Below, piece by piece: positions 2,177-57,238 of a DNA stretch of 64,000 nucleotides. The notes beneath the pieces are model-generated. The model did not search any database. It saw nothing but the letters and a program-made list of their open reading frames with translations, and had not been told where the DNA came from. The DNA is from Patescibacteria group bacterium (GTDB lineage Bacteria > Patescibacteriota > Patescibacteriia > UBA11705 > DATKZF01), in the NCBI GenBank assembly GCA_049319825.1, contig JBMORT010000002.1, positions 204,072-268,071 on the forward strand. The letters run 5' to 3'. The first letter of the stretch is position 1, and each line of letters starts with the position of its first letter. A program made the position numbers and the translations under genes.

Positions 2177-3907
2177 TTAGACTTCAATGACCACGGGCAG
2201 TACCATGGGACGTCGCTGCGTTTTTTTGAATAAAAATGCGCCAACTTCGTTTCTGAGCTTGTTTTTAATTTCGTTTGGATCGGCCGGACATTTGGCATTT
2301 TTATCCTTGACGATTTTTTTCACCAGACTTCTGGCGCTCTCCACCAATTCCTTGCTTTCCTTCATGTAAATGAATCCGCGAGAAATAATATCCGGACTGC
2401 CGACCAGCTCCCCGGTTCTCCGGCTGACCGTGGCGATTACCACGAACATGCCGTCTTCGGCCATTTGCATGCGGTCGCGCAATACAATATTGCTGATATC
2501 GCCGACGCCCAATCCGTCCACCATCACATACTCGGTCGGCACCCGTTCCTTGGTCAATTCGCCCATAATTTCCCGCCCTTTTTTATAGAATTCCATTACT
2601 TGGCCGTTATCGGCGACAAAGATGTTCGATTTGGGCATGCCCAGACTTTCCGCCAGTTCAGCGTTGGCTCGGAGCATGAAGTGATTGGCTTCGATCGGTA
2701 TGTAATATTTCGGCTTGAGCAATCGAATCAACATCTTCAGGTCTTCCTGCCGAGCGTGTCCGCCGGCATGGACATCCATCATTTTATAATGAAAAACTTT
2801 GGCCCCCTGCCTGGCGAGCGTGTCTTTTAAACTTTGAATGGTTCTTTCATTCCCGGGAATAACCGATGATGAGAAAATCACGGTGTCGCCTTTGGCAATG
2901 GACATAAAGCGGTGATCATTGTTGGCGATCCTCATTAACACCGCATTACTTTCGCCTTGCGCGCCGGTGCCGATCAGCACCTGTTTTTGCGGCGCCAGCC
3001 GTTGAAATTCTCCTTCTTCGACAATGGTGCCCGGCTTGATTTTTAAATATCCCAGCTGATGCGCGATTTCCACATTGGACTTCATGCTGCGTCCGTCAAG
3101 ATAAACTTTTTTTTCGAGTTTTTCGCAGATGGAGATGATCTGCTGAACTCGATTTAATAAAGAAGCGAAAGTGCCGACGATAATGCGGCCGGGAGCTTGT
3201 TCGAGTATTTGTTCCAAGTCTTGGCCGACAGTGCTTTCGGATATCTGGTAGCCGGGTTGCTCGGCGTTGGTGGAATCGGCCATTAGCGCTAAAACGCCGC
3301 GGGCGCCGAACTGGGCGATGCGGTTTAAATCCGCCGGCTTATCATTGATCGGGTTAAAATCAATTTTAAAATCTCCGGTGTGCACGATCATGCCGACCGG
3401 CGAAGTGATCACCACGCCGAAGCTATCGGGTATATTGTGGTTGACTCTGAAAAATTCCGCTTTCAATTTTCCCAGCGCGATGCTGTCTTTTTCCGGAATG
3501 ATTGTTTGAATGTTGAGTTTGGGCTGTTTGGATTCTTCGTGCCGCTTGGCGATGATGCCGGCCGTCAATTTGGTGGTGTAAATCGTCGGATTGCCCAGCT
3601 CCGGAATCAAATAAGACACGGCGCCGATGTGGTCGTAGTGGCCGTGAGTGATGATCACGCCTTTGATGTTTTTGATTTTGTTTTTTAGATAGGTGATGTC
3701 GGGAATGATAAAATCAATGCCCGGCATGTCTTCTTCTGGAAACTGCAATCCCATGTCGATAATGACTATGTCATTGCCGTATTCGACGACAGTCATGTTC
3801 CGGCCGACTTCTTCGAGTCCGCCAAGGGCCATCACGCGCAATTTATTGCCGCGCTGAGCCCAAGTTCTGGATAATGGCCGTCGCTGTCTGATTTTTCTTC
3901 TGTCCAT
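2177..3907 (-). CDS. rnj: ribonuclease J (metallo-beta-lactamase / beta-CASP RNase)
   Basis: ITHGHYDHIGA metallo-beta-lactamase motif, 576 aa; true start may be the internal MALGGLEEVG. Confidence 0.85.
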   Translation of the reverse strand: MDRRKIRQRRPLSRTWAQRGNKLRVMALGGLEEVGRNMTVVEYGNDIVIIDMGLQFPEEDMPGIDFIIPDITYLKNKIKNIKGVIITHGHYDHIGAVSYLIPELGNPTIYTTKLTAGIIAKRHEESKQPKLNIQTIIPEKDSIALGKLKAEFFRVNHNIPDSFGVVITSPVGMIVHTGDFKIDFNPINDKPADLNRIAQFGARGVLALMADSTNAEQPGYQISESTVGQDLEQILEQAPGRIIVGTFASLLNRVQQIISICEKLEKKVYLDGRSMKSNVEIAHQLGYLKIKPGTIVEEGEFQRLAPQKQVLIGTGAQGESNAVLMRIANNDHRFMSIAKGDTVIFSSSVIPGNERTIQSLKDTLARQGAKVFHYKMMDVHAGGHARQEDLKMLIRLLKPKYYIPIEANHFMLRANAELAESLGMPKSNIFVADNGQVMEFYKKGREIMGELTKERVPTEYVMVDGLGVGDISNIVLRDRMQMAEDGMFVVIATVSRRTGELVGSPDIISRGFIYMKESKELVESARSLVKKIVKDKNAKCPADPNEIKNKLRNEVGAFLFKKTQRRPMVLPVVIEV

Positions 3908-24285: not shown

Positions 24286-24314
24286 TTGACAGATATTTAT
24301 CAATTTGCTATAAT
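24286..24314 (+). promoter_or_regulatory. sigma70-type promoter TTGACA-17-TATAAT, probably leaderless transcript
   Basis: perfect hexamers; -10 ends 6 nt before ATG at 24321. Confidence 0.6.
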
Positions 24315-24320
24315 AAAAGC

Positions 24321-25133
24321 ATGGAAACCAAAGCGGAACAAATCAAACTAATCAGCGAGCTGAGAAAAGCCGGATTAAAGCAAAAAGAAGCGGAAATTTA
24401 TGCCGCGCTTTTGGAATTGGGCGGCGCTTATCCTTCAAAAATAGCAGAATACACGAAATTAAACCGAAGCACTGTATATAAAATTTTGGAGGAGTTATCT
24501 ATCAAAGGTTTAGTATCAGAGGTTCAAAAGGGGAAAAAGCTATATTATCAGATTGAAAAGCCGGATAAATTGGTTCGCTTCGCAAAAGAGCAAATTAAAT
24601 TAGCGGAAAACAGATTGGAAAACGCGGAAAAAATATTGCCTGATATTGAAGGTTTATTTACTCTAACGCCGAATAAACCCAAAGTCAGTTTTTATGAAGA
24701 ACTTGACGGAGTTTTAAAAGTGTATGCGGATCATGTTGATGTCAAGGAATCATATGAACAGCTGGCATTTTCAAACACAGCCGGGGTCATTGAATTCATG
24801 CCATTAAAATTTAGAGAAGATTATGTAAAGAAAAAAGAGAAAATTTCCATCCCTTCCAGAGGAATTGTTCCTGACACGGAAAAGGATATTGATTATAACA
24901 AAACCGTATATAGAAATGTTAATAAAGGAATATGGCCGAAGTTGCGCTGGATACCGGCTAAAATGTTTCCCTATAAAGGTGAAATTACCATTTATGAAAA
25001 TAATAAAGTCTCTTTGGTTAATTTCAGCGAGCCGACGATGATTGGGGTAATTATTGAAGATAAAGACATCCACGACATGATGGCCATGATTTTCGAGCTA
25101 GCCTGGGCCGGAGCGAAGGAATTTGGAAATTAA
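24321..25133 (+). CDS. TrmB-family winged-helix transcriptional regulator
   Basis: N-terminal TrmB-type wHTH (KEAEIYAALLELGGAYPSKIAEYTKLNRSTVYKILEEL..KGLV). Confidence 0.7.
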   Translation: METKAEQIKLISELRKAGLKQKEAEIYAALLELGGAYPSKIAEYTKLNRSTVYKILEELSIKGLVSEVQKGKKLYYQIEKPDKLVRFAKEQIKLAENRLENAEKILPDIEGLFTLTPNKPKVSFYEELDGVLKVYADHVDVKESYEQLAFSNTAGVIEFMPLKFREDYVKKKEKISIPSRGIVPDTEKDIDYNKTVYRNVNKGIWPKLRWIPAKMFPYKGEITIYENNKVSLVNFSEPTMIGVIIEDKDIHDMMAMIFELAWAGAKEFGN

Positions 25134-26552: not shown

Positions 26553-26616
26553 ACGAATATTTAATCCGAATGCTCCGAATATCCTATCCGAATACCACGA
26601 ATATCCCAAAAGTTTG

Positions 26617-26641
26617 ATCCATGATCCATGATCCATGATCC
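26617..26641 (+). repeat. GATCCAT heptamer tandem repeat (x4) abutting start codon
   Basis: gatccatgatccatgatccatgatccatgat directly 5' of ATG at 26642. Confidence 0.7.
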
Positions 26642-26851
26642 ATGATTTATATGCCCATAGAAAACAGAGACGACGTCGATCCCGGCATGGAAGTGCTGAT
26701 TGTCCTAAAAAAAGATCAGCCCACCGGAAAATTGACCAAAGGTATTGTCAAAGAAATTTTAACCAATTCCGCTTTTCATCCGCGGGGGATCAAAGTCAGG
26801 CTCGAAGACGGGCAGGTGGGCCGGGCGCAGGAAATATTGGAGAATAAATAA
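26642..26851 (+). CDS. YwbE-family small protein (DUF2196-like)
   Basis: PGM.V.IVLKKDQ.TGKLT.GIVK.ILTNS..HP.GIKVRL..GQVGR pattern matches B. subtilis YwbE. Confidence 0.65.
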   Translation: MIYMPIENRDDVDPGMEVLIVLKKDQPTGKLTKGIVKEILTNSAFHPRGIKVRLEDGQVGRAQEILENK

Positions 26852-32514: not shown

Positions 32515-32550
32515 AGGCAGTAGGCAAGAGGCAATAGGCAGTAGGTAAAT

Positions 32551-35629: not shown

Positions 35630-35956
35630 ATGCGTTTATCAAAGCTCCAAAAATACATTCTCATTCAATGCTATCAAGATAAAGGCGACAAAATGCACCG
35701 CGATCGCCTGATTGGATTTTATGGAAATATTCAGCAAGCGCCCAAATCTAAAGTTCAGACAAAGATAATCACCCGCAGCTTGGAAAGCCTGATTGATAAA
35801 GAATTAATGACCGGATTCGGCGTGCGCACTCCGCATAAGTGGTTCATAAAGGAAATCAGACTGACATCAAAAGGCAAAAAAGAAGCGAAGAATCTGCTCG
35901 GCGAGCAGATGAGTTTGCCATTAAAAACAAGAAAGGCGATAGGCGATAGGCGATAA
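35630..35956 (+). CDS. hypothetical basic protein; 3' end overlaps AGGCGAT x3 repeat
   Basis: 108-aa ORF upstream of scpA; no motif. Confidence 0.35.
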   Translation: MRLSKLQKYILIQCYQDKGDKMHRDRLIGFYGNIQQAPKSKVQTKIITRSLESLIDKELMTGFGVRTPHKWFIKEIRLTSKGKKEAKNLLGEQMSLPLKTRKAIGDRR

Positions 35957-35975
35957 GCGACACGCATTTCAAATT

Positions 35976-48189: not shown

Positions 48190-48231
48190 CTGATTCCTCC
48201 CGATTGGTTTAATTTCATCCAAATTCATATT

Positions 48232-48260
48232 ATTATATCATATTTTTTCATTTTTGTCAA
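48232..48260 (-). promoter_or_regulatory. sigma70 promoter TTGACA-17-TATAAT driving GC-rich SPFH operon
   Basis: perfect hexamers, AT-rich host-like context. Confidence 0.6.
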
Positions 48261-48827: not shown

Positions 48828-50276
48828 TTATGTGCTGGGAATTATTTTTTTCCATGTTGATTTTTTAAAACTGCTGATATGCGTTTTGGCCGTTCGTGTT
48901 TTGACGAATTTAAGCCACTGGGGATTTGGACCCTTGCGGTGCTTGTCGATGATGATGTCAACGACATCGCCGTTTTTAAGCTTGGCGTCGAGCGGCACCT
49001 GCTGATCGTTAACGCTAGCGCTGCCGCATTTATTGCCGATATCCGAATGTATTTCATAGGCGAAATCAACCGGGGTGGCGCCTTCGGGCAGATCGATAAC
49101 GTCGCCTTTTGGTGTGAAAACAAAAATTCTATTTTGGAAAAAATCTATTTTGACCGTTTCTAAAAAATTTTCATCGTCTTTAATTTCTTTTTGCCATTTC
49201 GCCAACTCATCGACCCAGCCCAAATCTTCAATTTTTGTTTTTCCTCCCTTTTCTTTATATTTCCAGTGTGAGGCGATGCCGAATTCCGCTTGCTCGTGCA
49301 TCTGCGGCGTGCGAATTTGGAATTCAACCTGCTCGTGATTGTCGCCGAATACGGTGGTATGCAGCGATTGATAACCGTTCGGCTTTGGCTGGGCGATATA
49401 ATCTTTTATTCTGCCTTTAACCGGCTTCCATAAGCTGTGAATAATGCCCAGCGCCGCGTAGCAATCGGCAATATCCTTAACGATGATTCGCGCCGCCACC
49501 AAATCGTAGATGTGATTGATGTCTTTTTCGTTTTTTATCAATTTGCGGTAAAGGCTGTAATAATGCTTCGTGCGGCTGTACACGTCCAGATAGTGGACGT
49601 TATTTTCTTTCAATTTCCGTTTTAATTTATTAAGCATTGATTCCAGCGCGCGTTCTTTGATCGGCAGCCCCTTTTTTATTAAACCCTCCACCCAAATATA
49701 TTCATCGGGAAAACCGTATTTGAACGCCTCATCCTCCAGCTTGCCTTGCAATTCTCCCATGCCCAGCCGATTGGCGATCGGCGCGTAGATTTCCAGCACT
49801 TCCATGGCGATGCGTTTTTGTTTATCCGCCGGCAGCGCGTAGAGCGTTCTTAAATTGTGAAGCCGATCGGCGAATTTGATGATGATCACCCGAATGTCTT
49901 TGGCCATGGCCACGAACATTTTGCGCAAATTTTCAACATAGCGTTTCATGCCGCGGTATTTGACGGTGCCGAGCTTGGTAATGCCATCGACCATGTCGGC
50001 GACGTCAGCGCCGAAATTTTGTTTGATGTCTTCCAGCGTGTATTCGGTGTCTTCCGGAACATCATGAAGCAAGCCGGCGATTATTATATTTTGATTGACC
50101 CCAAGATCGGCGAGGTTTTGGGCGGTGGCCAGCGCGTGATCAATATAGTCGACACCGGTGGCGCGGCGCTGGCCGGCGTGCGCTGTTTTCGCAAATTCAT
50201 AAGCCAGCTCGATCAGCGCCAGATCGGCTTTGGGGTCATACTTTTTAACGGTTGTCAGCAATTTGCGAATGGTCAT
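48828..50276 (-). CDS. rel: Rel/SpoT-family (p)ppGpp synthetase/hydrolase (HD intact) with TGS domain, no ACT
   Basis: HD motif LLHDVPEDT, synthetase YQSLHTTV..RTPQMH, TGS TPKGDVIDLP.GATP.DFAY. Confidence 0.85.
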   Translation of the reverse strand: MTIRKLLTTVKKYDPKADLALIELAYEFAKTAHAGQRRATGVDYIDHALATAQNLADLGVNQNIIIAGLLHDVPEDTEYTLEDIKQNFGADVADMVDGITKLGTVKYRGMKRYVENLRKMFVAMAKDIRVIIIKFADRLHNLRTLYALPADKQKRIAMEVLEIYAPIANRLGMGELQGKLEDEAFKYGFPDEYIWVEGLIKKGLPIKERALESMLNKLKRKLKENNVHYLDVYSRTKHYYSLYRKLIKNEKDINHIYDLVAARIIVKDIADCYAALGIIHSLWKPVKGRIKDYIAQPKPNGYQSLHTTVFGDNHEQVEFQIRTPQMHEQAEFGIASHWKYKEKGGKTKIEDLGWVDELAKWQKEIKDDENFLETVKIDFFQNRIFVFTPKGDVIDLPEGATPVDFAYEIHSDIGNKCGSASVNDQQVPLDAKLKNGDVVDIIIDKHRKGPNPQWLKFVKTRTAKTHISSFKKSTWKKIIPST

Positions 50277-50283
50277 AATTATA

Positions 50284-51912
50284 TTATAGCAGATCTTTAG
50301 TTGAAGCGTATTTAGTTATCATCTTTTTGGCCAAATTTGATTTCACGAAATTCAGCCAAGCCGGATCAGGGCCTTCGGAATTGATGTCCGGAATGATTTC
50401 CACCACGTCCTCATTTTCCAGCTTGCGACTGAGCTCGGCCGGTTGATTGTTTACCAGCGCGAACTTGCAGAAATGTCCCAGATCCGAATGGATATGATAG
50501 GCAAAATCCACCGGCGTGGCCCCCTGCGGCAGGGATATAATATCGCCCTTTGGCGTGTACACGTAAATTTTTTCTTGGAATATTTTGCTCAGCTCCTCGT
50601 CCCAGATATTTTTTTGGGAAAATAGGCTGCTGGCTCGGAGTAAACGCTTGGCCCAGTCGTTTTCCACGGCCGCGCCATCTTTATAGAATAAATGAGCGGC
50701 GACGCCATATTGAGCTTGGTGATGCATGTCATGGGTTCTAATTTGAAATTCGGTCAGACGATTGCCCGGGCCGATGACTGTCGTGTGCAAAGTTTGATAG
50801 CCGTTTTCTTTCGGCGCGGCAATATAATCCTTGATTCTCTTGTGCACCGGCGGCCAGAGGCCGTGAATGATGCGCATCATCAAGTAGCATTCATCGACGG
50901 TATTAACGATGACGCGCAGTGCGAACACATCGTAAATTTCATTGAATGTTTTTTGTTTGGTTTTCATTTTTTGGTAGATGCTGTAGTAGTGCTTAAAACG
51001 GCCGTTGACTTCACAGTTGATGTTGTTCTTTTCCGCTTCTCGCTGCACGGCCTTTTTCAGTTTATTAATGTATTTATCCCTGATTTTTTTATTCTCTTTG
51101 CCGAATTTGTCGGCGATTTTTTGATATTCTTTGGGCTGCAGGATGCGGAATGCGTGATCCTCCAGCTGCCAGCGTACGCGCCAAATGCCCAGCATGTTGG
51201 CGATGGGTGCTAAAATTTCCTTGGCTTGTTTGGCCAAAAGATATTTGTCTTCAAGCGCGATTTTCTCGTCGTTGCCTAGCGAATCGAGCATCGAGGCCAT
51301 CTTGATGAAAATAACGCGAACATCTTGCGCCATTACCAACATCAGTTCTTTGATGTTGTTGTTGAAACTTTTCGTTTTATTGGCCAAGTGATTTATTTTT
51401 CTGTATTTTTTTAATATTTCCAGCGCGTGATTGCCCAGCTCCTTCTTTATCATCGGATCAAAATCATCGATTTCGTTTTCCAAATCGACATGATGGAGCA
51501 TGCTGGCGGCGATAGTGATCGCGTCAACCTTCATCGTGCTCAACAGCTGCGAAGTGTTGACTGAGTGCCAAAAAAACATTCGGTGACGTTTTTGATCCTG
51601 GCCGTTAAAATATTGATCAATGTAATCCAGCACGATTACAATTTTATAATTGTCTCTGCCAATGATTTTTTCTATTTCCGATCTTTTTTCAGGAGAGACT
51701 TGGTTGATTTTAAAAATCGCTGATGAGGCGATAAAAAAAGGAGAAGCATTGGCCATTGCCAGCTTCTCCGCCAGTATTAATTGTTTTTCGTAGGTTTCTT
51801 TGGTGATTATGTTTGCGTTTAGGCATTTTTCCAAATAATTCAAAGCTTCGCCCAATATTTCCGCATCAGGCCTATTTTTTTCGATGAATTCCTGGAGCGT
51901 TTTATTACCCAT
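50284..51912 (-). CDS. RelA-like paralog with degenerate HD domain, synthetase and TGS
   Basis: HD replaced by MLHHVDLE; synthetase YQTLHTTV..RTHDMH; TGS present. Confidence 0.8.
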   Translation of the reverse strand: MGNKTLQEFIEKNRPDAEILGEALNYLEKCLNANIITKETYEKQLILAEKLAMANASPFFIASSAIFKINQVSPEKRSEIEKIIGRDNYKIVIVLDYIDQYFNGQDQKRHRMFFWHSVNTSQLLSTMKVDAITIAASMLHHVDLENEIDDFDPMIKKELGNHALEILKKYRKINHLANKTKSFNNNIKELMLVMAQDVRVIFIKMASMLDSLGNDEKIALEDKYLLAKQAKEILAPIANMLGIWRVRWQLEDHAFRILQPKEYQKIADKFGKENKKIRDKYINKLKKAVQREAEKNNINCEVNGRFKHYYSIYQKMKTKQKTFNEIYDVFALRVIVNTVDECYLMMRIIHGLWPPVHKRIKDYIAAPKENGYQTLHTTVIGPGNRLTEFQIRTHDMHHQAQYGVAAHLFYKDGAAVENDWAKRLLRASSLFSQKNIWDEELSKIFQEKIYVYTPKGDIISLPQGATPVDFAYHIHSDLGHFCKFALVNNQPAELSRKLENEDVVEIIPDINSEGPDPAWLNFVKSNLAKKMITKYASTKDLL

Positions 51913-52029
51913 ATGATCTTAATACTATTATAACAGATTTAGGCGAATGTCAAATACGTTTCAGTTGTAATAAAAAGGCAATAGGCAATAGGCAGTAGGC
52001 AGTAGACGACTGACATATGCGCCGAACTA

Positions 52030-52058
52030 TTGACAACCTTTGAAAAGTTTGCTACAAT
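52030..52058 (+). promoter_or_regulatory. sigma70 promoter TTGACA-17-TACAAT
   Basis: in 880-bp non-coding region. Confidence 0.5.
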
Positions 52059-52064
52059 GTAATT

Positions 52065-52134
52065 GTTGATGCGTTGGGAGTATCCCAATGACGCAGACAC
52101 TCCTCGGAAGTTTTCCTACGAGGAGTGTTTTGTT
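52065..52134 (+). ncRNA. candidate ~70-nt small RNA (two hairpins plus U-tail)
   Basis: hairpin TTGGGA-gta-TCCCAA then CACTCCTCG-12nt-CGAGGAGTG followed by TTTTGTT. Confidence 0.35.
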
Positions 52135-52795
52135 ATTACGAATTTTCCATACTAGAAGATAAAGCATAGCTATGTTTTTGTTACAAATATTACGAATTTT
52201 ACGAATTACAACCACTAATTTGGGAAATCGTAATTTTGTTACGAATTACAATCACTTTCGAGATTTAGGAATTCGAGCTTCACAATCCCTGAATCAAACT
52301 CGGTTTTGATCCATCATCCATGTTCCATGATTCAAGACTTTATCAACAATTCAATTTTTGCATTTCAATTCATATTTGATAAAATAAAGCCGAGGGTCGC
52401 CGGAAACCCTAGCATCAACAATGTCATTGGGGTTACAATCCGGTACCCTCACTGTATTCGATATAAAAAATACAAAATTTGAAATTGGGGATAGACAATG
52501 GAAATCTCCTGTTTCTAAATATTCTTCAGTCAACTCAATATCTCTCAAATCCTTATCCTTGCCTGATGGCTCGCGCAGTAGTTTGTCAGATTCGCTTAAT
52601 CGGGCAATATAAAAAAACAGGACGCCGGGTCCTGATTTTATATTGGGAATTGGAAACTGGAAATTAGAAATTGGGAAAATGTCTACGGATCTATGAAAAA
52701 ATGGATCAACGGATTGCAAACACATATAACATATAACTGATGAATAAATCATTGTTATTTGTTTCATGCTTCATGCTTCATGCTCCATGGACAAA

Positions 52796-55021
52796 TTATT
52801 CCTTCTCCGCCTTCTCAGTATGCTTACATTCCTTATTCGAACATTTGACGGTGCCTTTCGGACCGAATACAAGCTGCGAGCCGCAGTCCGGGCATTTTTT
52901 ATCAACCGGTTTTGACCAATATACGTTCTTGCATTCAGGATAGTTTGAACAGCCGTAAAAAGTCTTGCCGCGCTTTGATCTCCTTTCAATAATTTCGCCT
53001 TTGCCGCATTCGGGACATTTAACGCCCGTTGACTTCACGATCGGCTTGATGTTTTTGCATTCCGGATATTTCGAGCAGCCTAAAAATTTGCCGTAGCGGC
53101 CGTGCTTGATCACCATTGGCGCGCCGCATTTGTCGCAAATCTCATTAGTGGCTTCCGGCTCTTCGGTTTTTATTTCTCCATTAGTCGAAACGATGTTTTT
53201 AGTGTTTTTGCATTCAGGATAATTGGAACAGGCCAAAAATTTTCCGAAGCGGCCCATCTTAATAACCATGGGCGATCCGCATTTTTCGCAAATTTCCTTA
53301 GTCTCTTCTTCGGTAATTTCTTTTTTCGAAACTTCTTTTTCTTTTTTCTCCAAGTTTTTTTCGAATGGATTATAAAATTCATCGATTACTGGCTGCCATT
53401 CTTTTTTTCCTTCGGCGATTTTGTCTAAGTCTTCCTCCATATGAGCGGTGAAATCATAGTCAACGATATTTGGGAAATGAGCGACCAAAAGGTCATTGAC
53501 CACGAAAGCCATGTCTGTTGGCACAAGCTTTTTATCCTCTTTGACCACGTAGTTTCTGTCCTGGATAGTGGCAATGGTAGGCGCGTAAGTGGAAGGCCGA
53601 CCAATGCCGCGCTCTTCGAGCGCTTTGACCAGAGCGGCTTCCGTGTAGCGCGCCGGCGGCTGGGTAAAGTGCTGGAGCGGCTCGATTTTTTTGGCTTCGA
53701 CCGGATCTTTTTCCTTGAGCGCTGGCAAAATAGTTTCCTTGGTGTCTGTGGAATACACTTTTTGCCAGCCCGGGAATTTTATTTGCACGCCATTGGCGCG
53801 GAAAGTGAATTCACCTTTGGCGTTTTCGATATCAACAGCGGTCTGATCGAGCTTGGCATCAGCCATCTGGCTGGCCAGCGATCGCGACCAGATCAGATTG
53901 TAAAGCTTGTATTGATTATTATTTAAAAATTGTTTGATCGAGTCAGGTGTTCTGTCCGCTTGGGTCGGTCTGATGGCTTCATGAGCTTCTTGAGCGCCTT
54001 TTGATTTTTTATAAGCGCGGGCAGCCGGTCCCAGATACTCTTTGCCGAATTCGGATTCAATGAATTTTTTTACGCCGTCTTTGAATTCATCAGATAAATT
54101 CAAAGAGTCGGTTCTCATATAGGTGATCAAACCTGTTGATCCTTCCGATCCCAGCTCAATACCTTCATAAAGCTGCTGAGCCAGCATCATTGTTTGCTTG
54201 GCGGAAAAGCCGAGCTTGCTATTGGCTTCCTGCTGCAGCGTGGAGGTCTTAAATGGCGTCGGCGCTTTTTTAGCGGTTTCTTTGATTTCTACCTTGGCGA
54301 TTTTATAATCCTGCTTTTCAAGCTTGGCCAAAAGCTCCTTGGCCTGCTTTTCATTTTTAATATCCAGCTTCTTTAATGTCTTGCCGTCAACTTTATAAAG
54401 CTTGGCAGAAAATTCATTATTGTCTTTGGCAAATACAGCTTCGATCGTCCAATATTCTTCTTTTTTAAAAGCCTTAATTTCCCGCTCGCGTTCTACTATC
54501 AGGCGGACAGCCACGGACTGGACGCGTCCGGCAGAAAGGCCGCGCGCCACTTTTTTCCAAAGAAAAGGCGACAGCTTGTAGCCGACCAGCCTGTCGAGCA
54601 CGCGCCGCGCCTGCTGGGCGTCGACCAGATGCAAATCAATGTCGCGCGGATGCTCGATTGATTTTTCAATGGCCGACTTGGTTATTTCATGAAAGGTGAT
54701 TCTCTTGGATTTGCCTTTCTTTGGCTTTAAAATATTTTTCAAATGCCAGGCAATGGCTTCGCCTTCGCGGTCCTCGTCAGTCGCGAAGTATATCTCATCC
54801 GATTTTTTAGCCGCTTCTTTTAAGGCGTTGACAGCCTTTCTGGCCTTGGGAGGAATGACATATTGAGGTTCGTAATTGTTTTCGACGTCAACTCCCATTT
54901 TAGTTTTCGGCAAATCCCGCACATGACCAAAAGAAGACAGGATAGTGTATTCAGCCTTTGGTAAAAATTTGGTAATGGTTTTAGCTTTGGTCGGGGATTC
55001 GACGATGACTAGATTTTTCAT
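52796..55021 (-). CDS. topA: DNA topoisomerase I with C-terminal zinc ribbons
   Basis: Toprim plus Topo IA core plus four C4 zinc ribbons. Confidence 0.9.
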   Translation of the reverse strand: MKNLVIVESPTKAKTITKFLPKAEYTILSSFGHVRDLPKTKMGVDVENNYEPQYVIPPKARKAVNALKEAAKKSDEIYFATDEDREGEAIAWHLKNILKPKKGKSKRITFHEITKSAIEKSIEHPRDIDLHLVDAQQARRVLDRLVGYKLSPFLWKKVARGLSAGRVQSVAVRLIVEREREIKAFKKEEYWTIEAVFAKDNNEFSAKLYKVDGKTLKKLDIKNEKQAKELLAKLEKQDYKIAKVEIKETAKKAPTPFKTSTLQQEANSKLGFSAKQTMMLAQQLYEGIELGSEGSTGLITYMRTDSLNLSDEFKDGVKKFIESEFGKEYLGPAARAYKKSKGAQEAHEAIRPTQADRTPDSIKQFLNNNQYKLYNLIWSRSLASQMADAKLDQTAVDIENAKGEFTFRANGVQIKFPGWQKVYSTDTKETILPALKEKDPVEAKKIEPLQHFTQPPARYTEAALVKALEERGIGRPSTYAPTIATIQDRNYVVKEDKKLVPTDMAFVVNDLLVAHFPNIVDYDFTAHMEEDLDKIAEGKKEWQPVIDEFYNPFEKNLEKKEKEVSKKEITEEETKEICEKCGSPMVIKMGRFGKFLACSNYPECKNTKNIVSTNGEIKTEEPEATNEICDKCGAPMVIKHGRYGKFLGCSKYPECKNIKPIVKSTGVKCPECGKGEIIERRSKRGKTFYGCSNYPECKNVYWSKPVDKKCPDCGSQLVFGPKGTVKCSNKECKHTEKAEKE

Positions 55022-55282
55022 ATATAAAGGTATCGATGCGAATATTCTAATTATATTGATGATGCGGATTTAACTTTTCTTTATTTGCATGATTGGTATA
55101 ATTCGCATGCATTTGGATATTGGCATCGATTAAAATTTCATTTTGTTAAAATACTGACACTATTTTATAACCTTGTCAAATAAGATTCTGGAAAAGTTGA
55201 TTTTTGAGCGGTATAATCATCAAATTGACAGGTTTTATGTTTTATATTATATTGTTCAATCAGACAGACCAAGGAGGATATC

Positions 55283-55876
55283 ATGAAAGCCAAGCTTGGA
55301 GCGATTTTTCTCCTTTGCCTTTACTGTCGGTGCTCGGGAATATTGTCGGATGATCAGACAACGGTTCAGGTGGAAATTCAAAAGGTTCCGAATGGCTCGC
55401 CAATCGATATCACCGCCAGGTATTTGGCTGAAATAGAGGTTGCTCAGGCAATTGGTGGCGTCTATCCGTTTTTAAGAAACAAATGCCAAGCGCGATCGGT
55501 CATGGTTTATTTCGATAATTATCATGAGTCTGACGACGTGAGTTTCGCGTCGGTTGTGGTCACCCCGTACGGTTCGGAATTATTGTTTGAGTTTTATGTC
55601 AAGGACATGACTCTAATTCGGCGCTACACGCAGGCAATGATGGCGATCGATGTCAGCCGTCGTGAACCGACGCCGGTGCAGGGGCGATCATTTTATTGGG
55701 CCCGCGTGACGCTTGGCCAGCACCTGCCGCTGGAAAGATTGGCGTACTCGCTGAAGCAATTAGACGCGGGCACGCGCTATACACGGCTGCAGTACATTTG
55801 TCGGAATATTTCCGGAAAAAGAATCAAGCAGCTGGAGGGAAAATGGATTCGATACCAGCGCGAGTTCGTAAAATAA
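55283..55876 (+). CDS. hypothetical secreted protein
   Basis: AGGAGG RBS, signal peptide, terminator after stop. Confidence 0.5.
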   Translation: MKAKLGAIFLLCLYCRCSGILSDDQTTVQVEIQKVPNGSPIDITARYLAEIEVAQAIGGVYPFLRNKCQARSVMVYFDNYHESDDVSFASVVVTPYGSELLFEFYVKDMTLIRRYTQAMMAIDVSRREPTPVQGRSFYWARVTLGQHLPLERLAYSLKQLDAGTRYTRLQYICRNISGKRIKQLEGKWIRYQREFVK

Positions 55877-55878
55877 AC

Positions 55879-55907
55879 AGCCCCTCGGAACGCGAAGGGC
55901 TTTTTTG
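55879..55907 (+). terminator. terminator AGCCCCTCG..CGAAGGGCT + T6
   Basis: 9-bp stem with one mismatch. Confidence 0.55.
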
Positions 55908-55975
55908 TTTTGGGAATTGGAAATGGGGAATTGGAAATGGGGTTAATCCTAGTTTCCAATTTTCATTTTTTAGTT

Positions 55976-57238
55976 TCAGCCATTAAAACTTTTTCTGGTT
56001 TTAAGAATCTTTTCTTCGGACACCCAAAATTTTCTCAGCTCGCCGCACAAAAATGTCGAGCCGGTTATCAGCAGTGTTTCGTTTTTTCTTTGATTCCTTC
56101 TCGCCTCGTCAAAAGCTTGCCAAGGGTCAAGATACGGTTGGCATTTTATTTTCGGCCAGAATTTTTTTATCACGGGCACTATTTTCAGCGGGTCAGTCGC
56201 CCGCCGCTGCTCGACCAAAAAGCGAGTGGCATAAACCTGGCAATTAAAATTGTCGAGCAAGGGCTTGAGGCAGGCTTTTTCATCCTTGGGAGAGGACAGG
56301 GCAAAAACAATGTGAAGTTTTGTCGTTCTATGGTTCTGTAGTTTTATAGTTAAATATTTCAGTTTATCAGGATTGTGAGCGGAGTCCAAAATGACAAGAG
56401 GATTTTTTTGGATAACTTCAAGCCGGCAGGGAAGCTTGGCCTTGGCGATCCCGGCTTTGATGAATTGCTTTTTTATTTTCAGATATTCTGCCATTTTTGA
56501 GGCCAGTTCAGCATTCGGATTTTGTTTCGACTCGACCCAAACCATTTTAGCTTTGGTTTTTTTTGCCTCGTTGTCAAAGATTTTTAGAAATTGTTTTTTC
56601 TTTTCAGTGGTCAAGCAAATATTTTGATGAATAATGCCGGCTTTTTCATATGCCACATCCTTTAATGTCGGCCCGATGATATGCAGATGGTCCGGTCCGA
56701 TATTGGTAATGGCCGCAACATCGATTCTGCTCAAGGCATTGGCCGCGTCATAGCGGCCGCCGCAGCCGACTTCGATGATTTGATAATCGCATTTTTGTTG
56801 TTTGAAATAGAGCAGGGCGATCAGCAGAAAATTCTCAAAATATGAAGGCAGACTCGTTTGCTCATGGCATTTTTCAATGATCGGTTTGGCTTTCTCAACC
56901 ATTGCCGTAAATTCATCCGGGCTGATATATAAATCATTGACTTTGATTCGCTCGATCGCAGCGGTCGAATGGGGAGACATGTAGGTGCCGACTTTTTTTC
57001 CCGCTTCAGTTAAAATTTGCTGCAATATATTGCAAGTTGACCCCTTGCCGCTGGTGCCGGTGACCACAATTATTTTTTTCGCCGACCTTTCAGGATTGCC
57101 CGCCAATTTTAACAGCAGCTTGGCCCGCTTTAAATATTGCCGCGGATCTCTGGCGCCCGTAATTGAAGAATCCTCGCGGAGATTGGCGAGGGAAATTAAA
57201 TAATTGAACGATTGGTTGTATTGCTTGAATGAAAACAT
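55976..57238 (-). CDS. folC: FolC-like Mur-ligase family protein (folylpolyglutamate/dihydrofolate synthase-like)
   Basis: VTGTSGKGST P-loop, DSAHNPD motif, 420 aa. Confidence 0.65.
   Translation of the reverse strand: MFSFKQYNQSFNYLISLANLREDSSITGARDPRQYLKRAKLLLKLAGNPERSAKKIIVVTGTSGKGSTCNILQQILTEAGKKVGTYMSPHSTAAIERIKVNDLYISPDEFTAMVEKAKPIIEKCHEQTSLPSYFENFLLIALLYFKQQKCDYQIIEVGCGGRYDAANALSRIDVAAITNIGPDHLHIIGPTLKDVAYEKAGIIHQNICLTTEKKKQFLKIFDNEAKKTKAKMVWVESKQNPNAELASKMAEYLKIKKQFIKAGIAKAKLPCRLEVIQKNPLVILDSAHNPDKLKYLTIKLQNHRTTKLHIVFALSSPKDEKACLKPLLDNFNCQVYATRFLVEQRRATDPLKIVPVIKKFWPKIKCQPYLDPWQAFDEARRNQRKNETLLITGSTFLCGELRKFWVSEEKILKTRKSFNG

Follow-up and report, generated by a model that had tools for sequence, protein, structure and literature searches.

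A probable small-RNA gene and a complementary candidate partner RNA conserved between topA and tandem Rel/SpoT genes in Patescibacteria

The stretch of DNA analysed here, 64,000 nucleotides in length and referred to as the window, is part of a metagenome-assembled genome of the Patescibacteria. It contains two Rel/SpoT-like genes in tandem (rel1 and rel2) and, on the same strand, topA, separated from rel1 by a spacer (Table 1). The gene order (dprA)-topA-gap-rel1-rel2-pilin is kept among relatives. In the original prediction the spacer was described as an 880-bp non-coding gap with a candidate small RNA and only a 23-codon ORF. The spacer exists, at 883 bp, but it is not empty: next to the small RNA, here called sRNA1, which lies on the plus strand and divergent from the first of the two Rel/SpoT genes, it contains a second RNA gene that had been overlooked, RNA2 (52392-52644), about 330 nt downstream of sRNA1 and on the same strand. 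The account of its reading frames has to be amended as well, since the short plus-strand ORFs measure 24 aa (ATG at 52088) and 30 aa (TTG at 52063) and a 138-aa ORF, spurious as discussed below, occupies the minus strand. As to the neighbouring proteins, Pfam recognises just the HD, synthetase and TGS domains in the tandem Rel/SpoT paralogs of 482 and 542 aa, and the usual C-terminal region is seemingly missing from both; the upstream copy gives a weak HD match and is extended by about 90 aa at its N-terminus. This gene pair is conserved across the lineage.

Table 1 Features of the topA-rel1 spacer and its borders (window coordinates)
Feature	Position	Strand	Details
rel2, second Rel/SpoT-like gene	48828-50276	-	
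rel1, first Rel/SpoT-like gene	50284-51912	-	542 aa
topA-rel1 gap	51913-52795		883 bp
sRNA1 promoter	52030-52058	+	-35 TTGACA 52030-52035; 17-nt spacer; extended -10 TGcTACAAT 52050-52058 (TG 52050-52051, hexamer TACAAT 52053-52058)
sRNA1 transcript (predicted)	52065-52137	+	about 70 nt; predicted start G52065; 3' end in U-tract 52129-52137
sRNA1 5' seed	52065-52078	+	GUUGAUGCGUUGGG; single-stranded as far as 52071
sRNA1 hairpin 1	52072-52090	+	CGUUGGGA gua UCCCAAUG; 8 bp in minimum-free-energy fold
sRNA1 second block	52084-52092	+	CCCAAUGAC; complementary to RNA2 52423-52431 (GUCAUUGGG), near clade only
sRNA1 intrinsic terminator	52097-52137	+	10-bp stem 52097-52106/52119-52128; 12-nt loop; U-tract UUUUGUUAUU
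138-aa ORF antisense to RNA2	52351-52767	-	called as 133 aa by gene callers
RNA2 promoter	52357-52385	+	TTTGCA-17-TAAAAT with TG
RNA2 conserved core	52392-52450	+	three-helix hairpin, 59 nt
RNA2 helices P1, P2, P3		+	GAGGGU/ACCCUC, GCCGG/CCGGU, AACCCU/GGGGUU
RNA2 apical loop	52411-52428	+	AGCAUCAACAAUGUCAUU, 18 nt
RNA2 variable 3' part and terminator	52451-52644	+	stem 52618-52634, then AUUUUAUAUU
topA	52796-55021	-	end of gene borders the gap

The proposed sRNA1 promoter, TTGACA-17-TACAAT, is present exactly where it had been placed, and it has an extended -10 TG. With a match of 11/12 it is the top promoter-like site found by a promoter scan of positions 49000-56000, and it is one of seven TTGACA-N16-18-TAYAAT sites in the whole window. 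At least two of the other sites stand 3-6 nt 5' of an ATG start codon (24321 and 48228), from which it follows that this type of promoter would be in use in the organism and that transcription would begin at about the seventh base past the -10 hexamer; for the leaderless gene at 24321, the spacing between promoter and start equals that assumed for sRNA1. From this promoter geometry we infer that sRNA1 starts at G52065, the seventh base after the -10 hexamer. Because consensus promoters end so close to ATG codons (3-6 nt 5' of the ATG for those at 24286-24323 and 48228-48260, minus strand), leaderless or near-leaderless mRNAs seem to be common in the source organism. The promoter of rel1 itself, TTGACA-15-TGTTATAAT (51912-51953, minus strand), ends about 12 nt before the rel1 ATG.

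Both hairpins that had been described downstream of the promoter were found. The one at TTGGGAgtaTCCCAA, claimed to be 6 bp long, is lengthened to 8 bp (52072-52090) in the minimum-free-energy fold, and the 9-bp hairpin with a T-rich end becomes a GC-rich stem of 10 bp if the flanking A-U pair is counted (CACTCCTCG/CGAGGAGTG, then TTTTGTTATT). The latter was not listed by the terminator scan because its 12-nt loop exceeds the 3-8 nt that the scan takes. The 73-nt sRNA1 stretch folds with a free energy of -30.4 kcal/mol, as compared to -15.9 ± 3.1 kcal/mol for dinucleotide shuffles (z = -4.7), and none of the 200 shuffles was as good.

Relatives were reached via similarity of the Rel protein, after which their contigs were compared; all organisms considered are uncultivated and known from metagenome-assembled genomes. 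The sRNA1 unit is present in ten copies in nine genomes, at the same syntenic site and in the same orientation to the first Rel/SpoT gene, so that the divergent position first reported for the window holds throughout. The neighbouring Rel protein is 41-59% identical among these genomes, and the remaining spacer is unalignable, the gaps outside sRNA1 and RNA2 holding species-specific heptamer-like repeats. Two clades can be distinguished: a near clade formed by the window and the loci L012, L021, L015 and L018, with Rel identities of 58-59% (a range from which the L021 Rel was left out), and a distant clade formed by L024, L026, L028 and L031, with Rel identities of 41-45%. The unit is absent from the gap of three further relatives, L030, L032 (Falkowbacteria) and L033. 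A search of metagenomic contigs with a strict terminator pattern gave three loci, representing two organisms already found and one near relative, and a Rel-protein search of genome contigs gave only gammaproteobacterial and Flavobacteriales SpoT loci.

In all ten copies the promoter is kept as TTGACA-N14-TTTGCTATAAT, and the order of elements is the same: GUUGAUG, a GGG/CCC hairpin, a CG(A/C)GAAC-like linker, an ACUCC.../...GGAGU terminator and a U-tract. GUUGAUG begins at the seventh base after the -10 hexamer (the eighth in L018) and is invariant in the nine copies of the intermolecular alignment discussed below, the paralog L026A having GUUGAUU. Every copy folds alike, into a 5' tail, a small hairpin and a terminator; the tail is unpaired over about 9-15 nt in 9/10 copies, and the fold of the L024 copy pairs its first bases, which are located upstream of the inferred start. 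A covariance model (R1) built from the five distant-clade copies alone retrieves every near-clade copy, and its match in the window (52061-52137; 26 bits, E = 0.004 for 0.4 Mb searched) is the single match there.

Covariation was studied with clade-wise alignments and with a covariance-model alignment, used instead of a joint MAFFT/RNAalifold analysis of all ten copies that misaligned the two clades and recovered helix fragments only. The terminator helix shows compensatory changes, as had been suggested as a check: in the distant clade 93% of the cells are paired and five pairs carry double changes, a covariation score that 1/500 shuffles and none of the slid registers equalled. Per copy, between 9/9 and 11/12 of the terminator pairs are standard across all copies, as illustrated by the replacement of ACUCCU/AGGAGU by AUUUCU/AGAAAU in paralog L026A and of CUCG/CGAG by CUUG/CAAG in L015. 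Hairpin 1 has its GGG/CCC core in 9/10 copies, with one G-U in L028, and is neither supported nor contradicted by covariation.

These observations, taken together, make it very probable that sRNA1 is a genuine conserved small-RNA gene. Its transcription would be driven by a near-consensus sigma-70 promoter and would end at an intrinsic terminator belonging to the unit. The layout, in which a free 5' end is followed by a small GGG/CCC hairpin, a short linker that is conserved and, lastly, the terminator hairpin, would be that of a base-pairing sRNA. A chance combination of promoter and hairpin is excluded because the unit is kept across nine genomes and matched by the covariance model.

Some further features of the family deserve mention. 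L026 carries two tandem sRNA1 paralogs (3536-3857, minus strand). In copy A the 5' leader is longer by about 45 nt, the seed contains an additional U (GUUGAUUGAUAGGG) and the AU-rich terminator stem is fully compensated. In all copies the linker between hairpin 1 and the terminator (52091-52098 in the window) contains a conserved single-stranded CG(A/C)GAAC / GCAGACAC, and the near clade also keeps GUUUUCCU in its 12-nt terminator loop. The linker and the loop motif could be second pairing sites or protein-binding sites.

The frames that start from the two conserved AUGs of sRNA1 run for 6-38 codons and have C-termini that are unrelated between genomes. Because they close so variably, and with unrelated tails, sRNA1 does not appear to be a peptide gene, and no ORF in it is conserved across the compared genomes; Pfam gave no match for the 30-aa ORF or for a 62-aa ORF. 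That sRNA1 is nevertheless a tiny mRNA, translated as a near-leaderless micro-ORF from AUG 52069 or AUG 52088, would agree with the apparent use of leaderless mRNAs by the organism, with the AUG at +5 and with a GGGAG located 7 nt ahead of the second AUG in the window. The GGGAG is not conserved, however, and the substitutions are compensatory for helices instead of synonymous, which together with the variable frames makes the micro-ORF extremely unlikely.

Comparison of the whole window to Rfam 15 at the gathering threshold gave just three tRNAs, all located elsewhere. Permissive Rfam scans of the gaps of the window, L031 and L028 gave best scores of 15-24 bits against thresholds of 37-100, inconsistent between genomes. 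A tmRNA or split tmRNA was rejected, ARAGORN giving three tRNAs elsewhere only. The crRNA-tracrRNA type of RNA (type II CRISPR) was dismissed too, as the gap lacks a CRISPR-size repeat array and has topA and the two Rel/SpoT genes as neighbours, without cas9. A box C/D RNA does not fit, since UGAUGA occurs in the distant clade only (GUUGAUGAUA), with UGAUGC in the window, and CUGA is found in the terminator loop of L024 alone. On inspection, the defining motifs of a hammerhead core, of a T-loop or tRNA-like reading of GGGGUUACAAUCC and of an SRP-RNA reading of CCGGAA were absent or not conserved. Searches of phages and plasmids by blastn gave no match to these RNAs. Six matches to an sRNA1 pattern in viral contigs were all without the family architecture and, among the at least 120 matches to an RNA2 pattern that were listed, 15 had CCC/CCT just upstream and none was family-like; these viral-contig matches look like chance. 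In the full-text literature, neither these RNAs nor any sRNA of Patescibacteria was found described.

The core of RNA2, in which the helices P1, P2 and P3 are stacked on one another, is conserved even better than sRNA1. Its apical loop measures 17-18 nt across the relatives, with A(G/U)CAUCAAC...(A/C)AUU, and the core is followed by an unconserved A-rich stretch of very variable length and a terminator, which is bidirectional and common to the convergent topA. In a table of eight genomes every P1, P2 and P3 pair is standard, even where the helices differ in sequence: P1 occurs as GAGGG/CCCUC, GUAGGG/CCCUAC and GUGGGG/CUCCAC, and P2 as GCCGG/CCGGC, ACCUG/CAGGU, CUUG/CAGG and UGC/GCA. The covariation score of RNA2 was above that of 500/500 shuffles. 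A second covariance model (R2) scored 61-92 bits in nine genomes, including L026, which was outside the training set, and found no match in L019, L030, L032 and L033. No conserved ORF was found in RNA2, the core being conserved at all three codon positions with frames that differ or are closed; the frame in the window stops after seven codons and the RNA2 of L028 has no AUG. As judged from these comparisons, RNA2 is a real RNA gene.

The 138-aa ORF on the opposite strand contains the terminator hairpin and has no Pfam match, and in tblastn the relatives match its residues 106-131 only, which are the RNA2 core read backwards. On this evidence the ORF is spurious, an antisense shadow of the RNA2 gene, and the annotation of a 133-138-aa 'hypothetical protein' in the spacer can be corrected accordingly. 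Strain variants of the L012 locus, L013 and L022, carry one or three tandem units of about 66 nt in the 3' part of RNA2, each unit consisting of the A-rich linker plus the terminator hairpin.

In every genome the 5' end of sRNA1 is complementary to the apical loop and the 5' strand of P3 of RNA2. In the window GUUGAUGC (52065-52072) can pair with GCAUCAAC (52412-52419), and GGG (52076-52078) with CCC of RNA2 (52407-52409); in L028 and L031 GUUGAUGAUAGGG matches CCCUAUCAUCAAC over 13 nt, in L024 AUGUUGAUGAuAGGG matches CCCUuUCAUCAACAU, and in the second L026 copy (L026B) UGUUGAUGGUAGGG and CCUUAUCAUCAACA form 14 pairs, including two G-U. The longest contiguous Watson-Crick block between cognate RNAs is 8-13 nt, a helix of equal length at homologous positions occurs in 0-40 of 2000 shuffles, and the local duplexes have energies of -19.5 to -24.5 kcal/mol. 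The window helix by itself consists of 8 bp, a 3x2 internal loop and 3 bp, and its duplex energy is unexceptional for the 64-kb window (128 kb of sequence), the best of 20 shuffled seeds averaging -23 kcal/mol. This block and local-duplex analysis replaced full-length RNAduplex, which gave huge interior loops and energies for cognate pairs that were no better than for non-cognate pairs or shuffles. The complementary site of RNA2 lies in the apical loop of every minimum-free-energy fold.

In a concatenated alignment the 13-pair intermolecular helix has 92% of 117 cells paired, as compared to 18-64% in slid registers. The heptamers GUUGAUG and CAUCAAC never vary, so that most of this helix is silent with respect to covariation. 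One position truly covaries, the one following GAUG, which is A-U three times, U-G three times, C-G twice and G-U once, without a mispair, and which would mispair in cross-clade combinations of sRNA1 and RNA2; it does so mostly along the division between the clades, so the number of independent events is small. As long as the stems stay closed, the topology does not allow the second block of complementarity (Table 1) to form together with the first; the distant clade lacks this second block, which is treated as clade-specific here.

The arrangement of the two genes differs between genomes. At seven loci (window, L012, L015, L018, L021, L028 and L031) they are in tandem on the same strand. In L024, RNA2 has its own promoter and a bidirectional terminator and is encoded on the opposite strand, convergent with sRNA1, and in L026 it is inverted and located beside topA, with two inserted genes between RNA2 and the sRNA1 copies. 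These differences bear on whether the complementarity could belong to the DNA, with GTTGATG at +1 and CATCAAC about 350 bp away serving as half-sites for a regulator or recombinase, in an operator, a looping site or an invertible segment. Such a DNA element would explain the 18-nt inverted repeat, 89% complementary, between 52055-52072 and 52412-52429, one arm of which overlaps the promoter and start region, as is typical of operators. In L024 and L026, however, the inversion of RNA2 turns the DNA repeat into a direct one and leaves the RNA complementarity intact. Moreover, the spacing of the arms ranges from 137 to more than 3000 bp, their differences are G-U-compatible instead of the arms being identical, both lie within units with covarying RNA helices, and there is no adjacent recombinase gene. 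Pairing between the RNAs is favoured over a DNA inverted repeat because the complementarity is kept in three arrangements and changes preserve it through G-U pairs in L012, L015, L021 and L026, and a role of the DNA itself seems very unlikely.

The same arrangements argue on how far sRNA1 could be a cis-acting element. The tandem order at the seven loci would suit a leader or attenuator that controls read-through into RNA2. Yet RNA2, the sole downstream unit, has a promoter of its own that ends 6 nt before its first helix P1 in the window, L028 and L031 and 7 nt before it in L024, the distance between the two units varies from 137 to 560 nt, and RNA2 lies on the other strand in L024 and L026. 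Because of this separate promoter and the inversion in two genomes the cis-acting option is disfavoured, and we regard a leader or attenuator, or a chance promoter beside a chance hairpin, as most improbable. Of the two roles originally suggested, a trans-acting sRNA or a short regulatory transcript, it is thus the action in trans, through the conserved complementary RNA2, to which the comparisons point.

The best of the readings considered, and about evenly poised in our judgement, is the proposal that sRNA1 works through pairing with RNA2 and is one half of an sRNA-sRNA antisense pair. A first contact would be made between the free 5' tail of sRNA1 and the 18-nt loop of RNA2, after which the duplex would extend into the stems, so that hairpin 1 of sRNA1 and P3 of RNA2 come open. 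As a result, one RNA may titrate, remodel or destabilise the other, in a sponge-type or CopA/CopT-like manner. That the RNAs meet in the cell, which one is the regulator and which the regulated, and what the downstream effect would be are matters that we infer from sequence.

Two other explanations accept both RNAs as genes and assign less to their pairing. It is unlikely, in our opinion, that sRNA1 is a classical trans-acting sRNA with mRNA targets elsewhere, contacted through the 5' seed or the CG(A/C)GAAC linker, and that RNA2 is a decoy, a sponge or just one of many targets. The architecture of sRNA1 fits a seed-type sRNA, a further single-stranded stretch, located between hairpin 1 and the terminator, is conserved too, and the target search covered 64 kb of a genome of which the contigs reach about 0.4-0.8 Mb. 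Within the window, on the other hand, a perfect match to the 11-mer exists in RNA2 alone, the motif is absent from gene starts, and an energy scan was without a standout. The lone site with a single mismatch, GCATCATCAAT at 55055-55065 (minus strand), 34-44 nt upstream of the topA start codon, is not conserved in the relatives, and such a number of matches is expected by chance.

Quite unlikely, to our mind, is that the RNAs are independent and that their complementarity is the relic of an inverted duplication or reflects a shared sequence need, such as one protein binding both. The invariant heptamers may be explained by separate selection on each sequence, and in the near clade sRNA1 resembles a permuted antisense copy of the P3 hairpin of RNA2. 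Against this, the variable position beside the heptamer is pairable in 9/9 genomes through four types of pair, and the GGG/CCC extension is kept, whereas a relic should have decayed like the remaining spacer. If the pairing turned out to be irrelevant, two new RNA families of an ordinary kind would still be left.

The proposed sRNA1-RNA2 pair can be compared with several known systems. RybB and OmrA/B are seed-type trans-encoded sRNAs with seeds at the 5' end and a Rho-independent terminator. sRNA1 shares with these an orphan unit of about 70 nt, a single-stranded segment at the extreme 5' end, hairpins, a terminator and the lack of an ORF, but it has no sequence or Rfam relationship to them, occurs in a patescibacterial host, and has another sRNA instead of an mRNA as its best-supported partner. 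In sponge pairs such as RosA-RoxS/FsrA, SroC-GcvB and AgvB-GcvB, one small RNA titrates another through a seed-complementary site, and RNA2 likewise carries a conserved, presumably accessible site complementary to the sRNA1 seed. Known sponges are usually encoded elsewhere or derived from mRNA or tRNA precursors, whereas sRNA1 and RNA2 are dedicated adjacent genes that have stayed together over long divergence.

CopA/CopT of plasmid R1 and RNA I/RNA II of ColE1 are cis-encoded on opposite strands, fully complementary, and act in replication control. The resemblance to CopA/CopT is in the free tail of sRNA1 that would meet a large apical loop of RNA2, in pairing that can spread into the stems and, in the near clade, in the mutual complementarity of both strands of the sRNA1 and RNA2 hairpins. 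Unlike the plasmid pairs, sRNA1 and RNA2 are separate, non-overlapping and chromosomal, and are complementary over 8-16 nt only. Antisense control of plasmid copy number was rejected in view of the housekeeping context (dprA-topA-...-rel-rel), the lack of a replication gene and the lack of plasmid or phage matches. Type I toxin-antitoxin loci with a separately encoded antitoxin RNA, such as tisB/istR-1, shoB/ohsC and zor/orz, are similar in having two adjacent small units with short conserved complementarity; a locus of this type was rejected as there is no conserved toxin ORF in sRNA1 or RNA2 and the 138-aa antisense ORF is spurious. By analogy, sRNA1 most resembles in function the seed-type trans-acting sRNAs and the sRNA/anti-sRNA pairs, with a tail-to-loop geometry like that of CopA/CopT.

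The family formed by sRNA1 is new and, in its general kind, ordinary; its interest rests on the host lineage and on the conserved complementary partner RNA. Patescibacteria/CPR make up a large share of bacterial diversity and have tiny genomes with few known regulators. To our knowledge no regulatory RNA has been characterised in this group, in line with the outcome of the literature search. sRNA1 and RNA2 would thus provide a concrete and testable way into RNA-based regulation in Patescibacteria, and the covariance models R1 and R2 can be used across all CPR genomes. A more far-reaching idea, speculative and in our estimate improbable, is that the RNAs form a dedicated, self-contained switch tied to the adjacent truncated Rel/SpoT pair, and thereby to the stringent response, in these ultra-small, regulator-poor bacteria. 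In one such version RNA2 would be a structured effector or tRNA-acceptor-like ligand of the TGS domain, and sRNA1 its antisense off-switch. If true, it would be the first regulatory RNA circuit defined in Patescibacteria.

Several observations concern the surroundings of the two RNA genes. No GC-skew switch was found at the sRNA1/RNA2 locus, and a replication origin at this position was rejected on that ground. The part of the spacer that separates RNA2 from topA, or from sRNA1 in the case of L026, is a hot spot for insertions (L012 1-3000, L015 1280-3055, L026 832-3508): L012 has five small hypothetical genes there, L015 has three such genes and L026 has two large ones, and none are present in the window, L018, L024, L028 and L031. 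The promoter of topA (55140-55175, minus strand; also in L018, L024 and L031) is conserved as ATTTGACAA-N15-16-TGTCAGTAT / TGTCATATT, and the 5' UTR that follows is long and repeat-rich, about 120 nt in the window. Intergenic spacers in general are often full of degenerate short tandem repeats, mostly of period 7 (AGGCAAT, ATTGGAA, TTCATGC, TGATCCA and others), as found at 51976-52005, 52181-52207, 52642-52674, 52763-52789, 32515-32545, 35934-35960, 26615-26646, 55910-55942 and other positions, and the relatives fill their spacers with repeats of other units, such as CATACGGA... in L028 and AAGRGGGCTT... in L012.
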